Source: Deltaproteobacteria bacterium (GTDB taxonomy: Bacteria > Desulfobacterota > Binatia > Binatales > Binataceae). From it: 26,050 nt of DNA. The stretch is taken from contig DAHZDR010000164.1 in the NCBI GenBank assembly GCA_027403435.1, positions 1-26,050 on the forward strand, read 5' to 3'. The notes beneath the pieces are model-generated. The model was not told where the DNA came from, did not search any database, and saw only the letters and a program-made list of their open reading frames with translations. The position numbers and the translations under genes were made by a program. Positions 2,596 to 13,868 of this stretch are shown here, one piece after another. Positions within the stretch are counted from its first letter, which is position 1; the number at the start of each line of letters is the position of its first letter.

Positions 2596-3207
2596 TTAGT
2601 GGGTCGCGGCGGCCTGGGGCTTCGGCGCGGACGCGACGGCTGGCGCCGCCCCACTCGCTGGCGGCGTGGCGGCGGCTTTCACCGGACTGAGCGGCCGCGC
2701 GCCGCCCGGCTTCACCGCCGTTTCGTCCGCATTCGGGGTGTCGGTCGTGATGGCCGTGATTAGCATCCCCTGCTGGTAGCGCGGGCCGCCGACGATCAAA
2801 ATGCCGTGATTCATCAGTTTGACGTCGGTTGACATGATCGGCCGCGCGCCGTCGAACAGGATCAACTCCATCGCGATCATCCCGTCTTCGATTGCGCGCG
2901 GCGCGATATGGAGGATACGGCCGCCGGGCAACTCGAACGCGACCATCCGGCCGATTACCGTGTTCTGCTCCTGACGGTAGAGCAGCCGATAAGTGCTGAA
3001 TTGGAAGAGCGCCTGTAGCCGATCGCCCATCGCCGTATGCGCCAGCCGCTGGTCCATGCCTTCGGCGGTGTTGGCGGCCAGCACGGATTCGACTTTGATG
3101 CGGATTTTGTGGGCGCCTTCATGAGCCCAGGCGCCGCCCACCCAAGTGCCCGTCAGGACGATCAGGAAGAGCGGCAGCATGGGCGCAAAGGCGCGACGCG
3201 AAGTCAT
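2596..3207 (-). CDS. Secreted hypothetical protein, third gene of the ECF operon, 203 aa
   Basis: Starts 2 nt after the anti-sigma stop. Signal peptide MTSRRAFAPMLPLFLIVLTGTWVGGAWA|HEG, a predicted beta-rich core (FQFSTYRLL...LIVGGPRY) and a Pro/Ala-rich tail. Confidence 0.85.
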   Translation of the reverse strand: MTSRRAFAPMLPLFLIVLTGTWVGGAWAHEGAHKIRIKVESVLAANTAEGMDQRLAHTAMGDRLQALFQFSTYRLLYRQEQNTVIGRMVAFELPGGRILHIAPRAIEDGMIAMELILFDGARPIMSTDVKLMNHGILIVGGPRYQQGMLITAITTDTPNADETAVKPGGARPLSPVKAAATPPASGAAPAVASAPKPQAAATH

Positions 3208-3209
3208 AA

Positions 3210-3833
3210 TTAGCGCGACTGATCGGGCAGCCAGATGACGGTCGTATCGTTTTCCGGCTCGCTCCAGACGGCGACCGATGGATTGTCCGCCTCGAGCCGC
3301 GAAATCACGGCGCTCGGGCGATTCCCCTTGCTTGAGTTGGCGAGCGCGTCGTCAACCGGCTGCACGGCGGACGCGACCGGCGTGGCGCTCGCCCGGCGCG
3401 GGATCGCGGGCGGCGTCTGGCTGGCCGACGCGAGTTGGCTGGCGCGCGGCGCCGCATGGCGGCTCAGCATAAATTGGCGCGCGTAAGGCGTGATTAACAC
3501 GGCGGTGACAATCGCCACGGCCGCAGCCGCCATCCCGCCGGTTAGCGCGCCGCCGAAGCTGGCGGCGAGTTCGCCGAAAAACTTTCTTACCCGCGTCGGG
3601 AACGGCGCTGGCAGGCGCTCGATACGCGCCGTTACGGCGCTGGCGAAACCGTTCAAATCGGGCAGCGGCAGCGTGCCCCGCAGCGCGACGCCCAGCCGCC
3701 GATAGGCGGCAAGCTCAGCTTCGCAGTCGGCGCAGCCGACGACATGCCGCGCCACCTCCTGCATCTCGTGCGGTTCCAACTCGGCGTCTTCAAAGGCGCC
3801 AAGCAACAGCTTGATGTCGTCGCATCGTGCCAT
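3210..3833 (-). CDS. Zinc-finger (ZAS / zf-HC2) transmembrane anti-sigma factor, 207 aa
   Basis: N-terminal C4...HVVGCADC (HxxxCxxC), one TM segment (GMAAAAVAIVTAVLITPY) and an extracytoplasmic tail ending ENDTTVIWLPDQSR. It lies 6 nt downstream of the sigma gene. Confidence 0.9.
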   Translation of the reverse strand: MARCDDIKLLLGAFEDAELEPHEMQEVARHVVGCADCEAELAAYRRLGVALRGTLPLPDLNGFASAVTARIERLPAPFPTRVRKFFGELAASFGGALTGGMAAAAVAIVTAVLITPYARQFMLSRHAAPRASQLASASQTPPAIPRRASATPVASAVQPVDDALANSSKGNRPSAVISRLEADNPSVAVWSEPENDTTVIWLPDQSR

Positions 3834-3839
3834 TGTGGT

Positions 3840-4418
3840 TCAATCCCCGTCCAGGTCCTTGAGGATGGAGCGCAGGCGGCTGCGCGCATAATGCAGCCGG
3901 CTCATCACAGTGCCGCGCGGAACGTCGAGCATTTCACTTATCTCGTCGTATGAGAGGCCTTCCACTTCGCGTAGCAGTATCACGGCGCGATGTTCCGGCG
4001 TCAACTGCGCCAATGCGCCGGAAAGGCGCTGATGGAGTTCGCCGCGCGCGGTTTCACGGAACGAATCGCCAAGCTTGCTTGGCATTCGCTCGATTTCGTT
4101 TTCCGCCTCTTCGCCGCGCAAAATCGTGTGACGACCCTCGCGCCGGCGAAAGTCGATCGCGAGGTTTGCCGCGATTCGGTAAAGCCAGGTGGAGAAACTC
4201 GAGCGCGATTCGAACTTGCCGACATTTTCATAAGCGCGAACAAAGGTTTCCTGAGCCAGTTCGACAGCGTCGTCCAGGTTGTGCACCACCGCTTGCGCGA
4301 CGCCCACCACGCGCCGCTGATAACGCTCCACCAACGCGCCAAAGGCCTGCGTGTCACCCTGTTGGGCCCGCCGGATCAGTTCGGTTTCGTTGGCCTCTGG
4401 GGACGTTGGTCTACTCAA
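3840..4418 (-). CDS. ECF sigma-70 family RNA polymerase sigma factor (RpoE/SigW-like), about 192 aa
   Basis: Region 2 AFGALVERYQRRV...DAVELAQETFVRAY...FSTWLYRIAANLAID and region 4 LREVEGLSYDEISEMLDVPRGTVMSRLHYAR. I moved the start from TTG 4445 to the in-frame TTG 4418 because 4445 lies inside the predicted promoter. Confidence 0.95.
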   Translation of the reverse strand: MSRPTSPEANETELIRRAQQGDTQAFGALVERYQRRVVGVAQAVVHNLDDAVELAQETFVRAYENVGKFESRSSFSTWLYRIAANLAIDFRRREGRHTILRGEEAENEIERMPSKLGDSFRETARGELHQRLSGALAQLTPEHRAVILLREVEGLSYDEISEMLDVPRGTVMSRLHYARSRLRSILKDLDGD

Positions 4419-4423
4419 GAGGT

Positions 4424-4451
4424 TTAGACGGCGGTAAGGCGCCAAAATTCA
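4424..4451 (-). promoter_or_regulatory. ECF (sigmaE-type) autoregulatory promoter TGAATTT-N15-GTCTAA
   Basis: GAATTT (4450-4445), exactly 16 nt, then TCTAA (4428-4424). This matches RpoE/AlgU geometry (GAACTT-N16-TCTAA) and lies directly upstream of the ECF gene. Confidence 0.6.
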
Positions 4452-4472
4452 TGCGCAATGGGCGGTTTTTTT

Positions 4473-7079
4473 CTATTCAGGCGTCAGTTCCGCCCAGTTC
4501 GCTCCGGATTTCAGTTCGACTTTCAGGGGCGCCCGCAACGCCGCCGCGCCCTCCATCTCGCGCCGCACCGCGTCGCTGACCGCCGCAAGGCTGTCCCGCG
4601 CCACTTCGAGCAGCAGTTCGTCATGCACTTGAAGCAAGATGCGCGCCGCCAGCTTCCGATCGCAAATCACGGAATGCAAGCGCACCATCGCGAGCTTGAT
4701 CAAATCCGCCGCGCCGCCCTGAATCGGCGTATTGATCGCGATGCGCTCGGCCTGGGCGCGCGCGCCGCCTTGCGGACCGTTCAAATCCGGCAGATAACGC
4801 CGCCGCCCGTACATCGTTGCGACATAGCCGCGTTCGCGCGCTTCGGCGAGCGTCCGTTCGAACCATTCGCGCACGCCGGGCAGCCGCTCGAAATAGCGCT
4901 TGATATAGTCCCCCGCCGCATTTTGCGAAATGCCCAGCTCGCCCGCCAGCCGCTGCGGCCCCATCCCATAGATAATGCCGAAGTTGATGACCTTGGCGCG
5001 CCGCCGCGCCTCCGCGTCGAGCCGATCCGGCGCCACGCCGAGCACTTCGCTGGCGGTGCGCGCATGAATGTCCTCGCCACGCACGAAGGCTTCGATCAGC
5101 GTCGCCTCGCCGGCCAGATGCGCCAGGATGCGCAGTTCGATCTGCGAATAATCCGCCGACAACAGGAGCTGTCCGGGCGGCGCCGTAAAGGCGCGGCGGA
5201 TACGCCGGCCCGCCTCGGTGCGAGTCGGGATATTCTGCAGATTCGGCTCGGTCGAGCTGAGCCGGCCAGTGGCGGTCAGCGCCTGATGGAAATTCGTATG
5301 GATACGGCCGTCGGCGGGGTCGATCAGCGCCGGCAGCGCGTCGCAGTACGTTGACTTAAGTTTGGCCAAAGCGCGGTATTCCAGAATCAACTGTGGCAAC
5401 GGATGGATCGCGGCGAGCTTTTCGAGCGCGTCGGCGTCGGTGGAATAGCCGCTTTTAGTCTTCTTCAGCCCCTTTGCGGTCAGTTTGAGCCGCTCGAACA
5501 AAACCTCGCGCAGTTGATTCGGCGAATTCAGATTGAACGGTCCGCCCGCCTGTTCATGAACTTGGCGTTCGAGCCGCTCCAGATGGCCGCCGAATTCCGC
5601 CGAGAGCGCCGCCAGCGCGTCGGCGTCAACGGCGATTCCGGCCGCCTCAAGCGCGGCCAATACGCGCGCCGTCGGCAATTCGATTTCGTTGAACAGGCGT
5701 TCAAGCTGCTGTTCGCGCAGTTTCGGCGCGAGCGCCGTCCGCGCCGCTTCGATCGCCGCCGGCTCCGCGCCCGGCGCGATCGTTGCGGCGGGGCCGATTC
5801 CGGTGTGCGATAAATCTTCAAGTGATGGTTCAGGTTTGGCCGGATTGGCGAGAAAACCGGCGAGCAGCGTATCGAAATCGACGCCGTTCAGGCCGCTCCC
5901 GAGTCCTTGCGCGATCCGGAGCTGGCGTTTCAGGTCGTGGCAGGCTTTGCCTGGCGCGGGCGCGGCCAGCAGCGGCAACGCGGCGGCGAGCGAATCGTCC
6001 GAAAAGACGAAGATGCGTTCGTCGTCGGCCGCTTTCACCGCGAGCGACGCGCCCGCGGCCGCGCTGGCCGGCGTCAAATGGACGGCGAGCCGTGAGGCGC
6101 CCCGGAGCGTCCCGAGCGCCGCCGCGACGCCATCTTGGGTGACCGGACACAACGTCTCCTGGCGCGCCGCCGGCGCCTCGGGAGCGCCGCCCAGCTCCGT
6201 CAGCATCGTATGGAATTCGAGTTCCCGCAGCAGCGCGCGCATCGCGTCAAGGTCGATGCCCGGCCAGACGAGGTCCTCGGGGCCGAAATCCAGCGGCACG
6301 TCGGTGTCGATGCGCACCAGCTTGCGGGCCAGCTCGATTTCAGCGCGATGGGCGGGGATGCGCGCGGCGAGATCCTTCGGCAGGCGCGCCTTAATTTCGT
6401 CCAGACGGTCGAGGCCGGCAAAGAGCTTATCAAGGCCGCCGAAATGCTGAATCAGCGCGGACGCGGTCTTGGGGCCAACCCCGGGCAGCCCTTTGACGTT
6501 GTCGATCGCGTCGCCGGTGAGCGCCATGATATCGACCACCGCGGGCGGTTCGACGCCGAACTGTTCGCGCACCTCGCGCAGGCCCACGCGCCGGTCGTTC
6601 ATGGTGTCCCACAGCGTGATTGCGGGCGTGACCAGTTGCTTGAAATCCTTGTCGCCGGTGACGATTACCACCTTCATGCCGGCGCGCGCGGCGCGCCTGG
6701 CGAGCGTGCCGATCACGTCGTCGGCTTCGACGCCGGAGATCACGATCGGCCGAATCCGCATCGTGGCGACCGCCCGCTGGATGTACGGGATTTGCGGCGC
6801 GAGGTCGGGCGGCGTGGCGGCGCGATTGGCTTTGTAGGGCGTGAAGAGATCGTCGCGGAAAGTCTTGCCGGCCGCGTCGAAAACCACCCCGATATGGGTG
6901 GGATGGGCGTCCTTCAGCAGCTTCAGCAGCATCCGGATGAACCCGTAGGTTGCGCCGGTGGGCAGGCCGCGGGAATTGCTCAACGGCGGCAGCACGTGGA
7001 AGGCGCGAAAGATAATCCACGTGCCGTCAACCAGGTGGAGGGTGCGCTCGCCGTCAGCCGCGATGGATGGAGCCGCCAT
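4473..7079 (-). CDS. polA: DNA polymerase I, 868 aa
   Basis: 5'-3' exonuclease (LVDG...FRAFH, EADDVIGT, TGDKD, DNVKGLPGVGPKTA) and polymerase motifs A (DYSQIELR), B (RRRAKVINFGIIYG) and C (QVHDELL). Start trimmed from 7229 to ATG 7079 (MAAPS). Confidence 0.98.
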   Translation of the reverse strand: MAAPSIAADGERTLHLVDGTWIIFRAFHVLPPLSNSRGLPTGATYGFIRMLLKLLKDAHPTHIGVVFDAAGKTFRDDLFTPYKANRAATPPDLAPQIPYIQRAVATMRIRPIVISGVEADDVIGTLARRAARAGMKVVIVTGDKDFKQLVTPAITLWDTMNDRRVGLREVREQFGVEPPAVVDIMALTGDAIDNVKGLPGVGPKTASALIQHFGGLDKLFAGLDRLDEIKARLPKDLAARIPAHRAEIELARKLVRIDTDVPLDFGPEDLVWPGIDLDAMRALLRELEFHTMLTELGGAPEAPAARQETLCPVTQDGVAAALGTLRGASRLAVHLTPASAAAGASLAVKAADDERIFVFSDDSLAAALPLLAAPAPGKACHDLKRQLRIAQGLGSGLNGVDFDTLLAGFLANPAKPEPSLEDLSHTGIGPAATIAPGAEPAAIEAARTALAPKLREQQLERLFNEIELPTARVLAALEAAGIAVDADALAALSAEFGGHLERLERQVHEQAGGPFNLNSPNQLREVLFERLKLTAKGLKKTKSGYSTDADALEKLAAIHPLPQLILEYRALAKLKSTYCDALPALIDPADGRIHTNFHQALTATGRLSSTEPNLQNIPTRTEAGRRIRRAFTAPPGQLLLSADYSQIELRILAHLAGEATLIEAFVRGEDIHARTASEVLGVAPDRLDAEARRRAKVINFGIIYGMGPQRLAGELGISQNAAGDYIKRYFERLPGVREWFERTLAEARERGYVATMYGRRRYLPDLNGPQGGARAQAERIAINTPIQGGAADLIKLAMVRLHSVICDRKLAARILLQVHDELLLEVARDSLAAVSDAVRREMEGAAALRAPLKVELKSGANWAELTPE

Positions 7080-7093
7080 AGATGGATTCGCCC

Positions 7094-7121
7094 AGCCTAA
7101 CGAAACGCGCGGGCAAAGCAA
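7094..7121 (-). promoter_or_regulatory. Candidate sigma70 promoter for polA, TTGCTT-N16-TAGGCT
   Basis: Hexamers at 7121-7116 and 7099-7094, 14 nt upstream of the ATG. The match is weak. Confidence 0.3.
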
Positions 7122-7148
7122 AAGTCGGCGGGAATTAATTGAGCTATA

Positions 7149-7177
7149 TTGACAGTTTGGGCGTGGGAGTCTTAACT
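7149..7177 (+). promoter_or_regulatory. Candidate sigma70 promoter for the ABC operon, TTGACA-N17-TTAACT
   Basis: Perfect -35 at 7149-7154 with a 17-nt spacer. The -10 is imperfect and lacks the conserved A at position 2. Confidence 0.35.
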
Positions 7178-7202
7178 GATCCATTCGACTGGCCATGCAA
7201 CC

Positions 7203-7230
7203 TGAATGAAAGCTCAGCGGTAACGTCAAT
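7203..7230 (+). promoter_or_regulatory. Candidate ECF-type promoter TGAATGA-N15-GTCAAT upstream of the ABC operon
   Basis: Same TGAAT and CGTC-W-A elements, with identical spacing, as the promoter in front of the neighbouring ECF gene (4451-4424). Confidence 0.45.
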
Positions 7231-7287
7231 TTTGATTAACGCGAGATGGGCGCGGGGGTTCGCGGCGCCGGCGGAGCGGTCGAGCGG

Positions 7288-8058
7288 ATGATAGACGTTA
7301 AGCATCTAACCAAAGCCTACGGCAGCTTCGTTGCGGTCAAGGATGTTTCTTTTCGCGCCGAGCGCGGACAGATTCTGGGTTTTCTCGGTCCCAACGGCGC
7401 CGGCAAAACCACCACTATGCGGATTATCACCGGCTTTATGCCGGCGACCGCGGGCACGGTCGAAATCGACGGGCTGGATATTTTCGAAAATTCGCTGGAG
7501 GCGCGCCGGCGGATCGGCTATCTGCCGGAAAATCCGCCGCTCTACCTCGATATGCGGGTGGAGGCTTATCTGCGTTTCGTCGCCAAGCTACGCGGCGTCA
7601 AGCGCGGGGAAATCGAAGCCGCGCTCGACCACGCGCTCAAGACCACGGGCCTGACCGACATGGCGCATCGAATCTGCGGACAGCTTTCGAAGGGTTACCG
7701 CCAGCGCGTCGGACTCGCCCAGGCGCTGATTCACGATCCGCCGGTGATGGTGCTGGACGAGCCGACGATCGGCCTCGACCCGCGCCAGATTCATGAAATC
7801 CGCGACCTGATTCGCGGCCTGGCCGGCGGCCGCACGATCGTGCTGTCAACGCATATCCTGCCCGAGGTTTCGCAGATCTGCGACAAAGTTGTGATTATCA
7901 ATGACGGCCGGGTGGCGCTCGAGGAGATGGTCAAGGATATTCCGGAGGGAACCTCGCTGGAGGAGGTTTTCCTGCACGCGATCGCCCGCGAAGGCCATGC
8001 CGAAGGCGTCAGCGCCGAAGAGGCGCTCGAGGAAGTGGGCGCGGGCCATAGCGCCTGA
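7288..8058 (+). CDS. ABC transporter ATP-binding protein, GldA-like, about 256 aa
   Basis: Walker A GPNGAGKT, LPENPPLY, signature LSKGYRQR, Walker B VMVLDEPT and H-loop STH. Start set at MIDVKHL (7288); ATG 7246 is the alternative. Confidence 0.93.
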   Translation: MIDVKHLTKAYGSFVAVKDVSFRAERGQILGFLGPNGAGKTTTMRIITGFMPATAGTVEIDGLDIFENSLEARRRIGYLPENPPLYLDMRVEAYLRFVAKLRGVKRGEIEAALDHALKTTGLTDMAHRICGQLSKGYRQRVGLAQALIHDPPVMVLDEPTIGLDPRQIHEIRDLIRGLAGGRTIVLSTHILPEVSQICDKVVIINDGRVALEEMVKDIPEGTSLEEVFLHAIAREGHAEGVSAEEALEEVGAGHSA

Positions 8059-8090: not shown

Positions 8091-8864
8091 ATGCGTAACA
8101 CATTTACGATTGCGGGCAAGGAGCTCACCGGCTATTTCGTTCAGCCGGTCGCTTACGTGGTGCTGACCGTCTTCATTCTGCTCGGCGGATGGTTCTTTTT
8201 CGCCATGCTGCGGCAGTTCGACGAGATGGTGCAGCTCGTGCAGATGATGGGGCGGCCGGAGACGCTGAGCCAGATGAACCTGAACACGCGGGTGATCGAT
8301 CCGCTGCTGCACGATCTTTCGATCGTGCTGGTGATCGTGATGCCGGCGTTGACGATGCGGGTGTTCGCGGAGGAAAAACGCGCCGGCACTTACGAGTTGC
8401 TGCTGACCGCGCCGGTGCGCACCGGCGAAATCGTGGCCGGAAAATTTCTCGCCGCGGCCGCCTTCACGCTGGTGATGGTGGCGCTGGCGTGGATTTTTCC
8501 GCTGATCCTGATGGTCTTCGGCAATCCCGAGCTGGGCGTGATGTTCGCGGGCTACCTGGGGCTGTTCCTGCTGGCGCTGTCCTTCGTGTCGGTGGGGCTG
8601 TTCACCAGTTCGCTGACGCAAAACCAGATAATCGCGGCGATCAGTTCGTTCGGAATCCTGATTTTATTGTTCGTCATCTCGTGGCCGGCGGAGGCGGGCG
8701 GCGGCGTGGTCTGGGCGCTGCTCAAGTATCTTTCGCTGCCGGAGCATTTTTCGACCATGACGCGCGGCGTAATCGACACCAGCGACGTGGTGTTTTTTTT
8801 GAGCGTGGTGGCGACGGCGTTGTTCCTGACCCAACGTTCGGTGGAATCGGCGCGGTGGCGCTAG
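8091..8864 (+). CDS. ABC-2 type permease, GldF-like, 257 aa
   Basis: IAGKELTGYFVQPVAY start, LTMRVFAEEKRAGTYELLLTAP, about 6 TM segments, and a GVIDTSDVVFFLS...SVESARWR end. Confidence 0.9.
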   Translation: MRNTFTIAGKELTGYFVQPVAYVVLTVFILLGGWFFFAMLRQFDEMVQLVQMMGRPETLSQMNLNTRVIDPLLHDLSIVLVIVMPALTMRVFAEEKRAGTYELLLTAPVRTGEIVAGKFLAAAAFTLVMVALAWIFPLILMVFGNPELGVMFAGYLGLFLLALSFVSVGLFTSSLTQNQIIAAISSFGILILLFVISWPAEAGGGVVWALLKYLSLPEHFSTMTRGVIDTSDVVFFLSVVATALFLTQRSVESARWR

Positions 8865-8880: not shown

Positions 8881-10452
8881 ATGAAGCGGTCTTCGGCGCT
8901 ATCCGGGCTAATCGGACTGGTACTGCTGGCTTTCGGCGTTCTCGGTTATCTGCTCACCTCGGGGGCGTTCGCGCGGCTCTTCAGCGGCGTGAATCTGATC
9001 GCCGGCGTAATCGCGCTGATCGGATGGCTGGCGTCGAGCCGGGGTTCGTTCGGCGCAATGGCCGGCGCCCGGCGCGCCCGTTACGGCGCCAACGCCGCCA
9101 TCTATACGATGGCGTTTTTGGGCGTGCTGGTGGCGCTCAATTACCTCGCCGCGAAGTATCATCGCCAGTTCGACATGACCAGCGAGGGCGCTTTCAGCCT
9201 TTCCCCGCAGTCGCTCGAGGTGCTCAAGAACCTCAAAAAGCCGGTCAAGCTCTACGGCTTCGTCGCGGGCGGACGCAGCGCGCGCGCCGAGACGCTGTAC
9301 CAGGAGTACGCTTACGCCTCGCCGCTGGTCACTTACGAGCTGGTCGATCCGACGCGCCATCCGGAACTCGCCGAACGCTACAAAGTCACGGTGATGAACA
9401 CCACGCATATTCAGTACGGCGGCGACTCCGGCGCGGGCGTCAACGTGACCGATCTGAACGAGCAGACGCTCACCAACGGGATCGTCAAGGTCACCAAGGC
9501 CAGCCAGAAAACTATCTGCTTCCTGACCGGCGAAGGCGAAGACGACCCCGGCGAGGCGACCGCGGGCGACGGGATGGGGCAGTTCAAGGAAGCGTTGCAG
9601 GGCGAAAGCTATATCGTCAAAAAAATTAACCTGGTGACCGAGCCGGCCGTGCCCGGGGAATGCGCCGTGATGGTGGTCGCGGGACCGACCCGCCCGCTGG
9701 TGCCGCATGTCCTCGCGGCGTTGACCGATTATCTGAATAAGGGCGGGCGCGAGCTGATCACGCTGCGGCCGCCGCGGCCCGATCAGTCGATCGACGAGAC
9801 CGCGCTGGTGGGGTGGCTGCAAGATTGGGGCGTGACCGCCGGCAATAACGTGGTCGTCGATCAGGTGGTGCGGCTGTTCGCCGGACCGGCGCTCGGCCTC
9901 GATCCGCTGGTCAACGCCTACGGGCCGAGTCCGATTACGGCGGGCTTCGATAAGCAGACGGTTTTTCCGATGGTGCGGACGGTCGCGCCGAGCGATCCGC
10001 CGAAGCCCGGCCGCGAAGTGATTTCGCTGGCCAAAACCAGCGATACTTCGTGGGCGGAAACCGATCTGGAAGGGCTGTTCAAGCGCCAGGAGGCGAAATT
10101 CGACGCGGCGAGCGATCAGAAGGGACCGGTCAGCGTCGCGGTAGCCGTCAGCGCGAATCTCGCCGCGCTCAAACTTGGCCAGGGCGAGGCGCGGATGGTG
10201 GTGTTCGGCGACACCGATATCGCCAACAACACCTACCTCGGGAACTTCTTCAATCGCGACTTCGTGATGAATTCGATCGATTGGCTGGCCGGCGAGACCA
10301 ACTCGATCACGATTCGGCCGCGCACGCTGCGGGCGTCGCGCTTCAGCCTGACGGTCGCGGAGTTCGACGTGGTGTTCGTGCTCTCCGTGCTGTTGCTGCC
10401 CGAGTTGCTGCTGATCGTGGGGATTGCGGTGTGGTGGGAACGGCGCAACTGA
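8881..10452 (+). CDS. GldG-like ABC auxiliary / uncharacterised transport component, 523 aa
   Basis: Three N-terminal TMs, FDMTSEGAFSLSPQS, VDPTRHP, FLTGEGE, VVFGDTD, NRDFVMNSIDWL and a C-terminal TM ending WWERRN. This is the usual GldG-family layout, and the gene follows the GldA/F-like genes. Confidence 0.88.
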   Translation: MKRSSALSGLIGLVLLAFGVLGYLLTSGAFARLFSGVNLIAGVIALIGWLASSRGSFGAMAGARRARYGANAAIYTMAFLGVLVALNYLAAKYHRQFDMTSEGAFSLSPQSLEVLKNLKKPVKLYGFVAGGRSARAETLYQEYAYASPLVTYELVDPTRHPELAERYKVTVMNTTHIQYGGDSGAGVNVTDLNEQTLTNGIVKVTKASQKTICFLTGEGEDDPGEATAGDGMGQFKEALQGESYIVKKINLVTEPAVPGECAVMVVAGPTRPLVPHVLAALTDYLNKGGRELITLRPPRPDQSIDETALVGWLQDWGVTAGNNVVVDQVVRLFAGPALGLDPLVNAYGPSPITAGFDKQTVFPMVRTVAPSDPPKPGREVISLAKTSDTSWAETDLEGLFKRQEAKFDAASDQKGPVSVAVAVSANLAALKLGQGEARMVVFGDTDIANNTYLGNFFNRDFVMNSIDWLAGETNSITIRPRTLRASRFSLTVAEFDVVFVLSVLLLPELLLIVGIAVWWERRN

Positions 10453-10480
10453 CGGCGCCGGAAGCGGCGGAAACGGCGAG

Positions 10481-11956
10481 ATGAGTACGCGCAAGACGAT
10501 CGTGGCGCTGGTGGCGCTCGCGATAATCGGCGGTTTCGCCTATTACACGAGCCTGCAACCGGCGTCCTCGGGAAATCAGCCGATCTTCCAGATTAAGGCG
10601 GACCAGATTCGGCGCATCGAGCTCAAAGGCCCCGCGCATGACGTGGCGCTTGAGCGCGCCAAGCCGGGGATCTGGAAAATCGTCAAGCCGGTCGAGGCCA
10701 ACGCGGATAATTCCTCCGCCGACGCGCTGGCCGCCGCGATCGCCGGACTGCATAGCACGGAAACCGTCGAGGCCAATCCGCAAGACCTCGGAATCTTCGG
10801 CTTGGCGGATCCGGCGGTTACGGTTTTCGTCACCGCCAGCGACGGGCGCAAGCTGCCCGGAATCATGGTCGGCAAGAACACGCCGGTGGGCGCCGGCGCC
10901 TATATAAAAATGACCGACGCGCCGGCGGTGATGCTGGTTGAGGCGGGGTTTGCGGGCGAGGCGATGAAATCGCTCGACGATCTGCGTTCGCGGGTGTTGT
11001 TCAATTACACCGCCGATCAGATAAATCGCGTGGTTTTGACCAAATCGGACGGCTCAACGCTGGAATTGGCGCGCACCGCCGGCAAGTGGTCGATCGTCAA
11101 GCCGCGTCCTTATCCCGCCGACCAGGCGGCCGTGGGGCATTTGCTCGACACGATCGCCGCCGCCCGCGTGGAGCAGTTCGTCGATGACCATCCGGAGGAT
11201 CTCAACCGTTTCGGACTCGGCGCGCCTTCGCTCAAGCTGCAAGTCTTCGGCGGCAAAGATAACGCGGAAGAATCGCTGGGATTCGGCTTCGCGCAGTCCC
11301 AGGCCTATCGCAACGCGGTCTATGCCCGGCGCGGCGAGGGCGATCGGCCGGTGTGCACGGTGGCGTCCTATGTGGTCAAAGAGTTCAACCACGGCTTCGA
11401 CCATTTCCGCGACAAGACCGTGTTGCGCTTCGACCCCAAAGACGTGGCGCGAATCATGATTGTCGGCGGCCCCGTGCAAATCGTGATCGAGCGCGCGGGC
11501 AAGGACCAATGGACGGTGACCGGAGCCGGCCGCACGGCGCCGGCCGAAACGCTGGTGGTGCGGAGCCTGCTCGACCAATTGCACGATCTCAAAGGCGGCG
11601 CCATCGTCGAAAATCCGATGACGGACGCGGCCCGCTTCGGGATGGCGGAGCCGACGCTGACCGCGACGATCTACGACGCGGCGGGCAAGGAGCTCGGCGC
11701 GCTGCATGTTTCCCAGGTCGAGGAGACGGCGACGCCGAGCAATCCCACGCAAAAACCGGTCACCAAGTTCAGGGGCTACGCGACTTCGACCGCGGACCAG
11801 GCGGTTTACGCAATTCCCCCGCATCTGGTGCGCGACCTCGAGAGCACCGCCACGCGGCTGCGTAGCGACGCCGCGCCGAAACCGGCGCCGTCCGCCGCGC
11901 CGTCTGGTTCAGCGGCGGTCACGCCGCCGGCGCCGGGCGCCACGCAGGCGCCTTAG
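10481..11956 (+). CDS. DUF4340-type membrane-anchored periplasmic protein with three internal repeats, 491 aa
   Basis: N-terminal TM (MSTRKTIVALVALAIIGGFAYY), three W-x-[IV]...AD/AE...FG[LM]xxP units and a Pro/Ala tail. It occupies the usual fourth position after GldAFG-like genes. Start moved from 10424 to 10481. Confidence 0.8.
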   Translation: MSTRKTIVALVALAIIGGFAYYTSLQPASSGNQPIFQIKADQIRRIELKGPAHDVALERAKPGIWKIVKPVEANADNSSADALAAAIAGLHSTETVEANPQDLGIFGLADPAVTVFVTASDGRKLPGIMVGKNTPVGAGAYIKMTDAPAVMLVEAGFAGEAMKSLDDLRSRVLFNYTADQINRVVLTKSDGSTLELARTAGKWSIVKPRPYPADQAAVGHLLDTIAAARVEQFVDDHPEDLNRFGLGAPSLKLQVFGGKDNAEESLGFGFAQSQAYRNAVYARRGEGDRPVCTVASYVVKEFNHGFDHFRDKTVLRFDPKDVARIMIVGGPVQIVIERAGKDQWTVTGAGRTAPAETLVVRSLLDQLHDLKGGAIVENPMTDAARFGMAEPTLTATIYDAAGKELGALHVSQVEETATPSNPTQKPVTKFRGYATSTADQAVYAIPPHLVRDLESTATRLRSDAAPKPAPSAAPSGSAAVTPPAPGATQAP

Positions 11957-13601: not shown

Positions 13602-13776
13602 GGCGATTCTCCCTTCGATTTGAAACCGTCGCGCGGCCGCGAGTCAGCACGGCGGCATGGCTCGCGGCAATAATATGGCGTATATGGCGCGAAGCTCCTG
13701 AATGCGCCACAGGCTAGCATGAAACGCCGATTTTTGGTTAACGCCCGGGCGGCTGACGCGACGCGGCGCGGGCGGC

Positions 13777-13792
13777 TTGCCGATCACGGCAA
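13777..13792. promoter_or_regulatory. Palindromic operator candidate TTGCCG-ATCA-CGGCAA upstream of the acyl-CoA dehydrogenase
   Basis: Perfect 6-bp inverted repeat with a 4-nt spacer, about 76 nt before ATG 13869. Confidence 0.3.
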
Positions 13793-13868
13793 AGATTGCG
13801 ATCCGTTAACAGCGCGGCTCGCGGCTGGTAGTCTCGGGGAGCAAAATCAGGCTGGACGGGGATTTTCG

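Follow-up and report, generated by a model that had tools for sequence, protein, structure and literature searches.

The closest described relatives of the system studied here are operons built around an extracytoplasmic function (ECF) sigma factor. In Escherichia coli the sigma-E-RseA-RseB operon, which has degP as a target, shows the same layout as the operon considered below, and in Bacillus subtilis the anti-sigma factor RsiW spans the membrane, carries a zinc-binding N-terminal domain with the motif HxxxCxxC and is released by regulated proteolysis. We analysed a window of 26,050 nucleotides (nt) from a Deltaproteobacteria bacterium of the family Binataceae (class Binatia), which is contig DAHZDR010000164.1 (C507) of the 2.49-Mb assembly GCA_027403435.1 (G000; 545 contigs, completeness 84%). 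It contains the operon of an ECF sigma factor with genes for a ZAS-type anti-sigma factor and a secreted protein (orf3) and, on the far side of polA, a divergent operon for a GldAFG-like ATP-binding cassette (ABC) transporter that ends with a gene for a DUF4340 protein (the ABC operon). A preliminary description of the window had proposed that twin ECF-type promoters, one in front of each operon, connect the two in an undescribed envelope-stress regulon. From our comparison with related genomes the window would, with a probability of roughly 0.6, hold the core of a sigma-E/AlgU-like envelope-stress circuit in Binatia, which has its own operon, an htrA gene and a promoter of the ABC operon (P2) as targets.

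With the AlgU-MucA-MucB-MucD system of Pseudomonas aeruginosa the Binatia system has in common an ECF sigma factor that appears to be autoregulated, a membrane anti-sigma factor, a periplasmic accessory protein and a target of the HtrA/DegP family. The AlgU promoter consensus given in PMC3819740 reads GAACTT-N16-17-TCtgA. Written in the same frame, the site of the sigma gene is GAATTT-N16-TCTAA, that of htrA GAATTT-N16-TCTGA and P2 GAATGA-N16-TCAAT. The sigma and htrA signature of Binatia (GAATTT-N16/17-TCTAA or TCTGA) is one base off the AlgU consensus, with a T in the -35 element where AlgU has a C, and the characteristics of RpoE/AlgU promoters, i.e. consensus, autoregulation and an htrA/degP target, are found at the putative sigma and htrA promoters. 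The idea of an undescribed kind of regulon does not hold at this degree of similarity: the predicted circuit belongs with the known envelope-stress regulons of the sigma-E/AlgU-like type.

Unlike the AlgU and sigma-E systems, the Binatia operon encodes an anti-sigma factor of the ZAS type (HxxxCxxC) and an orf3 product without likeness to RseB or MucB, and a GldAFG-like/DUF4340 transporter is among the candidate targets. Against the RpoE equivalog TIGR02939 the sigma factor reached 132.8 bits, with a cut-off of 236.15, and downstream of its gene neither an RseA/MucA-type anti-sigma factor nor an RseB/MucB-type partner was found, but a zf-HC2 protein and the family-less orf3. The nearest homologues of the sigma factor outside Binatia (36-45% identity) come from Proteobacteria (Xanthomonas, Acidithiobacillus, Burkholderiales and others). 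There an htrA-like gene lies ~1-4 kb downstream of the sigma gene, as in algU-mucABCD, whereas the htrA gene of Binatia is unlinked.

Likeness to sigma-W and RsiW is given by the HxxxCxxC anti-sigma factor and by the NCBIfam model SigW, which is among the best matches of the sigma factor, at 131.8 bits under the cut-off of 209. We take sigma-W to differ in its -35 preference and in having no orf3-like partner, and the Binatia organism to be of the diderm type with an HtrA target. RpoE1 of Thermoanaerobacter tengcongensis is reported in PMC3397946 to be autoregulated, to recognize tGTTAC-N16-CGTC, to read -12G by a DxxR motif in region 2.4 and to be paired with a TolB-like anti-sigma factor. 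The Binatia system resembles it in CGTC, in the N16 spacer and in the region 2.4 motif DxxR, which reads DFRR at the matching place of the sigma factor; it differs from it in the -35 element (GAAT instead of GTTAC) and in the anti-sigma factor. The transporter, finally, resembles GldA/GldF/GldG of Flavobacterium in combining an ATPase, an ABC-2 permease and a GldG-like auxiliary protein, and Gld models are the best NCBIfam matches. The scores lie below the equivalog cut-offs (294 vs 402.6 for TIGR03522, 145.4 vs 288.5 for TIGR03518 and 72.4 vs 389.85 for TIGR03521), and differences from the Flavobacterium system are the added DUF4340 gene, a host outside Bacteroidota and that no link to gliding was seen.

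Promoter signatures of the sigma and htrA genes

The region in front of the sigma gene was compared in 47 orthologous loci, 30 of them from 41 related genomes and 17 from public records, a set that includes the window and one duplicate record. GAAT and GTC, 17 or 18 nt apart, were found directly upstream of the sigma gene in every locus (47/47, 44 distinct sequences), and the gene's own putative promoter, TGAATTTC..CGTCTAA, was likewise present in 47/47. Its consensus reads cTGAATTTC..CCGTCTAA with a variable spacer, and the C preceding GTC as well as the T preceding GAAT are nearly invariant. When dyads were counted de novo, GAAT-N16/17-CGTC came out first (36/36 upstream regions), as it did for the ABC operon (see below). 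The conserved site looks like an autoregulated ECF promoter.

For another ECF sigma factor it was shown experimentally (PMC3397946) that CGTC is the determinant at -13 to -10. If the same holds here, transcription of the sigma operon is predicted to start at ~4417, i.e. at the TTG codon 4418-4416. This TTG, 5 nt past the -10 box, is the start in all Binataceae orthologues except one, such that the sigma mRNA would have hardly any leader, or none, and its translation would begin at UUG. The arrangement CGTCTAA-N5-TTGAG is kept through the family (loci L002-L023; 4416-4430 on the minus strand of the window) and TTG is the only plausible sigma start; in genome G004 (L011) the start codon position reads TAG. 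Other Binatia families start the sigma gene with GTG 7-25 nt past the -10 box. On a short contig of genome G005 (C65:1902-1927, L286) the sigma promoter and the beginning of the operon occur once more, which could be due to a duplication or to strain heterogeneity in the assembly.

To scan the whole assembly we used a position weight matrix (PWM) trained on the sigma promoters of the relatives, with the window left out. At scores of at least 22 it gave 8 matches, 7 of them outside core coding sequence, vs 0 in a reversed-sequence control, and at scores of at least 14 it gave 55 matches vs 10 (Table 1). Among the high-scoring sites was one belonging to an unlinked gene for an HtrA/DegP-family protease. 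All 20 Binataceae orthologues examined had the site, TGAATTT..CGTCTGA, but none of the 7 from other families did, a count that leaves out three further loci, and the top de novo dyad upstream of htrA was again GAAT-N16/17-CGTC (19/20). In the dyad counts this element thereby ranks first in three independent gene sets, namely ABC, htrA and sigma. The strict pattern TGAATTT-N14/15-CGTCT occurred 1-6 times per Binataceae genome, a repeat family in genome G009 aside. Its 51 non-repeat matches in 25 family genomes comprised 20 sigma and 14 htrA promoters, with 2 matches for the backwards control in all 41 genomes. The clearest member of the predicted regulon besides the sigma operon is the unlinked htrA/degP gene. 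The conserved core of this putative regulon is the sigma operon together with htrA, and the ABC operon is its weaker, evolutionarily labile member.

Other matches were followed through the relatives as well. Only the five closest of 18 genomes keep the site at the type III polyketide synthase gene on contig C244 of G000, its spacer being variable, and this gene is a possible lineage-specific regulon member. Two sites at a resistance-nodulation-division (RND) pump on contig C347 (scores 24.7 and 18.5) were rejected, being absent from 13/13 other orthologous or paralogous loci. Set aside, too, was a third strict match common to genomes G007, G009 and G012, which lies within a coding frame on the opposite strand. 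In G009 a perfect sigma-type signature, TGAATTTCA..CGTCTGA, lies in an insertion sequence that encodes a DUF772 transposase; the signature overlaps a TATAAT and is located 34 nt upstream of the start of the transposase gene. This genome has ~20 copies, at contig ends and at inner sites (e.g. L295), and G024 has one (contig C26, L290). The transposase could depend on the stress sigma factor for its expression, or the match could be incidental.

The second promoter of the ABC operon

The preliminary description had quoted two main sites, and these are indeed the sole matches of TGAAT-N16-CGTCWA in the window (4425-4451 on the minus and 7203-7229 on the plus strand). In shuffled windows 0.03 matches are expected and 0 of 100 shuffles gave two or more, a statistic that is post hoc, since the pattern was built from the same two sites. 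The 2.49-Mb assembly has 6 matches vs 1 for the backwards control. For the bare core GAAT-N16/17-CGTC 314 matches were counted in the genome vs 156-281 in five spacing and letter controls and 22 in a sixth control, the core read backwards. As this 8-base core is common, a single genome proves little. The gene starts were set by conservation in alignments of the relatives: the sigma gene begins at TTG 4418 and not at TTG 4445, polA at ATG 7079 and not at 7229 (the relatives' alignments begin near MAAPS) and the ATPase gene at ATG 7288 and not at 7246 (conserved start MI(D/E)VK). With starts fixed in this way both main sites are intergenic, as had been stated.

Upstream of the ATPase gene we compared 48 distinct regions of 200 nt, 34 from Binataceae and 14 from other Binatia families. 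The P2 core GAAT-N16/17-CGTC was found on the sense strand in 27/34 and 6/14 of them, respectively, and on the antisense strand in 1/34 and 1/14. Four other spacings and three letter controls gave 0-1 matches in either group, and shuffled Binataceae regions a mean of 0.145 in 34. Of all dyads of two 4-mers and a gap the P2 core was the commonest in the Binataceae regions, followed by the sigma-70-type TTGA-N18/19-TTAA (22/34). An ECF-type signature in front of both operons is hence borne out well beyond the window. Among genomes added later, G015 and G036 are without P2, and G025 has a match in front of an ABC operon of doubtful orthology.

A motif-blind MAFFT alignment of 15 genomes gave the same picture. 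With a mean column identity of 38% in the upstream alignment, the only invariant columns were G7204, A7206, T7207, T7226 and C7227. Near-invariant were A7205, C7224 and G7225, the positions of TTGACA (7149-7154) and TTAACT (7172-7177), the aligned ATG start codon and an isolated C136 (window 7253). The hexamers form a putative sigma-70-type promoter, P1, which a generic promoter scan did not list because its -10 fails the rule of that tool. A loose P1 pattern occurred in 30/34 family regions and in 7/14 regions from other families, with 0 antisense matches. P2 lies ~25 nt downstream of the P1 -10 box and its predicted transcription start is ~7237. The putative promoter at 7203-7230 has the -35, the CGTC-type -10, the fixed spacing, the orientation and the conservation of an ECF promoter, with the same spacing classes as the sigma and htrA sites. 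The most fitting interpretation of P2 is that of a second, stress-inducible promoter, which the ABC operon would have beside P1. Read as a second promoter, it would be compatible with a transcription start at ~7184. One sigma-E/AlgU-like regulon is likely to include both main sites as ECF promoters. The word "twin" does not suit them, given that the ABC site is a degenerate copy (PWM score 13.7 vs 28.7) behind the more widely conserved P1.

In a polA phylogeny every main Binataceae clade includes genomes with P2 and the absences are scattered, with 7 label changes, of which at least 5 are forced by well-supported branches of this quick, midpoint-rooted tree. An old element that was lost several times would be the simplest reading. 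The order of ABC operon, polA, sigma, anti-sigma and orf3 is conserved across Binatia families; ABC operon, polA and sigma gene follow each other in all 20 Binataceae genomes fetched first and in most genomes from other families of the class. In genomes G039 and G031 (L137, L141) polA is gone from the site and the ABC and sigma operons diverge directly from a common region of ~220 nt. PolA between the two operons is probably a bystander. A test for co-absence was discarded: in G010 and G011 the search found no sigma orthologue, no GldF-like permease and no polA, such that the region is probably unassembled and these genomes are uninformative.

Several observations weigh against a circuit that includes the ABC operon. 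As a PWM match P2 is weak (13.7 vs 28.7 for sigma and 25.5 for htrA), and it differs from the sigma and htrA sites by CGTCA instead of CGTCT, by T or C before GAAT and by lacking TTT after GAAT. Of the family regions 8/35 lack it, as does about every second region from other families, though sigma factor and ABC operon are kept, and the link is therefore dispensable. Five genomes from other phyla have the sigma/orf3 operon, and their GldF-like operons showed no upstream motif in common. A search for RNA runs that contain 3840-8058 listed none. P1 alone could account for the expression of the ABC operon, and another ECF sigma factor of like specificity is possible in the organism: a first look gave 7-49 sigma candidates per relative genome, and the assembly is 84% complete. 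The matrix on its own over-calls, considering that the RND pump site is unconserved (0/13) and the polyketide synthase site lineage-restricted (5/18), and the compared genomes are kin, so that conservation counts overstate independence. The weak score, the differences from the strong sites and the absence in about a quarter of the family argue against a tight or essential link. What stands of the link between stress sigma factor and ABC operon is the conserved GAAT-N16/17-CGTC, the class-wide adjacency and the envelope-stress type of the system; what speaks against it is that P2 is weak and absent in 8/35 regions.

The question which sigma factor would read P2 leads to the first alternative, in which P2 is a real ECF promoter used by another ECF sigma factor that prefers GAAT and CGTC, while the neighbouring sigma factor controls only itself and htrA. 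We consider this improbable. A CGTC -10 is common to many ECF groups, as stated in PMC3397946, the positions flanking P2 differ from those of the sigma and htrA sites, the relatives hold many sigma candidates next to an incomplete assembly of our own, and by eye an ECF gene on contig C21 of the assembly has GAAAC-N16-CGTCAAA upstream. Of six Sigma70_r2 matches in the assembly four besides the window sigma are ECF-sized, and GAAT-N16/17-CGTC was not seen upstream of these four, which have different motifs; this favours the neighbouring sigma factor as the candidate reader of P2. For one of them, a paralogous ECF gene on contig C301, an apparent TGAAT-N18-CGTCC was rejected, as 20 relatives conserve GGGAACCTTT, TTAGAATTT and TGCTATGTT instead (GGGAACC-type region). 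Among the recovered ECF genes the distinctive GAAT -35 thus occurs only at the promoter of this sigma factor (and at htrA). In addition, P2 shares the spacing classes of the sigma and htrA sites, and the two operons remain adjacent throughout Binatia, diverging directly in the genomes that lack polA at this place.

Less probable still is that the GAAT..CGTC element is not a promoter but the operator of a regulator or a 5' leader element of the P1 transcript. Its location downstream of the conserved P1, and hence inside the leader of that transcript, fits this view. Two invariant blocks with a spacer of 16/17 nt and variable sequence on one strand are the anatomy of an ECF promoter and not of a palindromic operator, and the same dyad tops the sigma and htrA sets. 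A structured RNA in the ABC leader was likewise rejected: a search of 4300-7400 at E up to 1 yielded no Rfam match, and with 0 pairs from RNAalifold there was no consensus structure. On the reverse strand the element reads as a poor sigma-70 promoter, and the promoter scan found none there. Very improbable, finally, is a P2 that is a neutral remnant of chance and shared ancestry with the ABC operon driven by P1 alone, for, in spite of a low-information core (314 genome matches vs 156-281 in the five controls), a score of 13.7, the post hoc discovery of the motif and the relatedness of the genomes, the core persists across clades with terminal polA branches of 0.2-0.5 changes/site over which spacer and flanks are scrambled, control patterns reach only 0-1/34 and look-alikes (the RND site and the third site, see below) are unconserved.

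Sensing module and proposed circuit

The sigma factor is a member of the ECF group (group 4) with Pfam scores of 74.1, 59.9 and 50.1 bits, each of which exceeds its cut-off, and reaches 110.8 bits against TIGR02937 (cut-off 42.9). In NCBIfam it is RpoE/SigW-like, yet under every equivalog cut-off. Orthologues were found in 40/41 genomes searched. The anti-sigma factor has the N-terminal motif C4..H30-x3-C34-x2-C37 and one hydrophobic stretch at ~91-119; in 30 sequences H30, C34 and C37 do not vary, and the conservation of C4 reaches at least 90%. H-x3-C-x2-C with an upstream Cys/His, encoded next to an ECF sigma gene, characterizes it as a predicted ZAS anti-sigma factor. The only conserved periplasmic part of the protein is its C-terminal SRLEAxxPSVAVWSEPxxDTTVIWVPDQ, which is kept across the class (3210-3300 on the minus strand of the window).

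Orf3 follows the anti-sigma gene in 42/46 loci searched and also occurs in some Desulfobacterota-type and Kiritimatiellae records. Its product has a signal-like hydrophobic stretch at the N-terminus and an all-beta core at ~31-160. None of 30 members gave a meaningful Pfam match, and a sequence search of the PDB was negative at E up to 10. The structural model had a predicted local distance difference test score (pLDDT) of 81.5, with values >90 in the core. Foldseek returned low matches only, with template modelling (TM) scores of at most 0.32. With VIA-align the top 12 matches were secretin domains at Z 9.7-6.3 over 100-114 aligned residues, on a scale on which unmatched models typically reach 7-8, and this secretin likeness of the model is a lead only. 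In the ESM Atlas, folds similar to orf3 occur as fusions with zf-HC2 proteins in Binatota (TM 0.49) and with ECF sigma factors in Methylomirabilota (TM 0.58).

We also predicted a complex between the anti-sigma tail (residues 120-207) and the orf3 core (residues 30-165) from custom alignments with three controls. The interface score ipSAE was 0.58 (0.54, 0.60 and 0.58 in the runs) vs 0.01 for the best control. In the calibration set 116 of 157 solved complexes and 2 of 215 mismatched pairs came up to the mark; both of these mismatches, but only 18 of the 157 solved complexes, did so with values of at most 0.60. The runs agreed in at least 82% of the contacts, with a pLDDT of the partners of at least 74. 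The prediction lends weak support to such a complex, and orf3 is probably part of the sensing module.

From signatures, conservation and synteny, all of them comparative, we infer promoter use, the reading by this sigma factor and the nature of the signal. In the circuit proposed here the ECF sigma factor would be held at the membrane by the anti-sigma factor, which by its domains should be a single-pass protein of the ZAS type, and the co-transcribed secreted beta-protein orf3 would probably take part in sensing. Once the anti-sigma factor is inactivated, the sigma factor would guide RNA polymerase to (T)GAAT-N16/17-CGTC promoters. The first of these would be the very strong site of its own operon at 4424-4451, resulting in positive feedback through a nearly leaderless mRNA, the second that of the unlinked htrA/degP protease gene on contig C436, and the third the weaker P2 at 7203-7230 of the divergent GldAFG-like ABC/DUF4340 operon. 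Constitutive P1 would provide a basal amount of transporter, which P2 would boost under envelope stress. The GldAFG-like/DUF4340 transporter thus described probably belongs to the envelope-stress response.

The ABC-2/GldG-like/DUF4340 module is widespread. In Verrucomicrobium spinosum a DUF4340 gene is reported as essential (PMC12283558), a cyanobacterium is reported to induce one at very high CO2 (PMC12789804), and for SAR11 an ABC complex of such proteins is predicted (PMC13712998). A stress-sigma promoter signature in common with htrA would place the module in an envelope-quality-control response. Such a circuit would be the first regulon, with a promoter logo, for the uncultured class Binatia. 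The mechanism as such would hold nothing unusual for specialists of ECF sigma factors, and the value of the circuit lies in a testable stress link for the transporter module. A full-text search found no literature joining Binatia and sigma factor; for ECF sigma and GldG it gave PMC7463736 and PMC9723704, the latter with both terms only in its reference list, with the published ECF classifications, which may list this sigma group or its neighbours, outside the search. A bolder and rather doubtful extension is that the GldAFG-like/DUF4340 transporter is a dedicated sigma-E-type effector that was wired to ECF sigma factors repeatedly in uncultured diderm lineages, combined with a new sensing module in which a secretin-like orf3 docks on the C-terminal peptide of the ZAS anti-sigma factor. 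As a dedicated effector the transporter might extract or export a lipid or polymer for repair of the outer envelope.

Features of the locus

Genes were called from Pfam and NCBIfam profile matches (Table 1). The sigma gene is 81% identical to one from Candidatus Binataceae bacterium, whose ABC upstream region is that of genome G008, from the same genus.

Table 1. Coordinates of the sigma and ABC operons in the window and of PWM matches in the assembly.
Feature	Position	Strand	Elements or profile matches	PWM score
orf3, secreted protein, 203 aa, third gene of sigma operon	2596..3207	-	without Pfam family	
ZAS-type anti-sigma gene	3210..3833	-	Pfam zf-HC2, 24.2 bits (cut-off 22.2)	
ECF sigma gene, 192 aa, TTG start	3840..4418	-	Pfam Sigma70_r2 7.8e-21, Sigma70_r4_2 1.9e-16, Sigma70_ECF 4.1e-13	
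Putative ECF sigma promoter	4424..4451	-	-35 TGAATTT 4451-4445; -10 CGTCTAA 4430-4424	28.7
polA (DNA polymerase I)	4473..7079	-	Pfam DNA_pol_A 1.4e-155	
P1 of ABC operon, sigma-70-type	7149..7177	+	TTGACA 7149-7154, N17, TTAACT 7172-7177	
P2 of ABC operon, ECF-type (putative)	7203..7230	+	TGAAT 7203-7207, N16, CGTCAAT 7224-7230	13.7
GldA-like ABC ATPase	7288..8058	+	Pfam ABC_tran 5.4e-32; NCBIfam GldA_ABC_ATP 1.4e-87	
GldF-like ABC-2 type permease	8091..8864	+	Pfam ABC2_membrane_2 9.3e-14	
GldG-like auxiliary protein (ABC_transp_aux + DUF7088)	8881..10452	+	PF09822 2.5e-27, PF23357 2.1e-09	
DUF4340 protein, last ABC-operon gene	10424..11956	+	PF14238 1e-51, three stretches	
Site of type III polyketide synthase gene	C244:1358-1386	-		25.9
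Site of HtrA/DegP-family protease gene	C436:8418-8445		Trypsin_2 and two PDZ domains in the protease	25.5
Site near AcrB-like pump	C347:743-770		276 nt away from the pump gene	24.7

The DUF4340 protein belongs to PF14238 with 176.2 bits (gathering cut-off 25) and has a single N-terminal hydrophobic stretch by hydropathy, while the GldG-like protein has hydrophobic stretches at its N- and C-terminal ends. At the other end of the locus the open reading frame (ORF) 1717-2406 on the minus strand is not a gene; the overlapping short-chain dehydrogenase on the plus strand (1741-2508) is real, with a GC content at third codon positions of 0.83. The sigma operon therefore ends with orf3.

A third site, at 13621-13646, had been proposed as a weaker copy that points to an acyl-CoA dehydrogenase gene. 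The letters TGAAA..AGTCA are present, but the site has neither GAAT nor CGTC and was found in 0/12 of the relatives' upstream regions. Since alignments of the acyl-CoA dehydrogenase start ~40-50 codons past the ATG at 13719, the site is also further from the real start than had been assumed. It was rejected as a promoter of the regulon. The ORF is probably called too long (region 13719-13860, plus strand), and a conserved block resembling TTAACA-N17-TAGTCT lies just upstream of the likely start.

For polA a sigma-70-type promoter candidate is located at 7094-7121 on the minus strand (TTGCTT-N16-TAGGCT), which would leave a leader of only ~8 nt before ATG 7079. The block that contains it (gtaacgaaac..gcaaagcaaaag on the plus strand) is visibly kept in the relatives.

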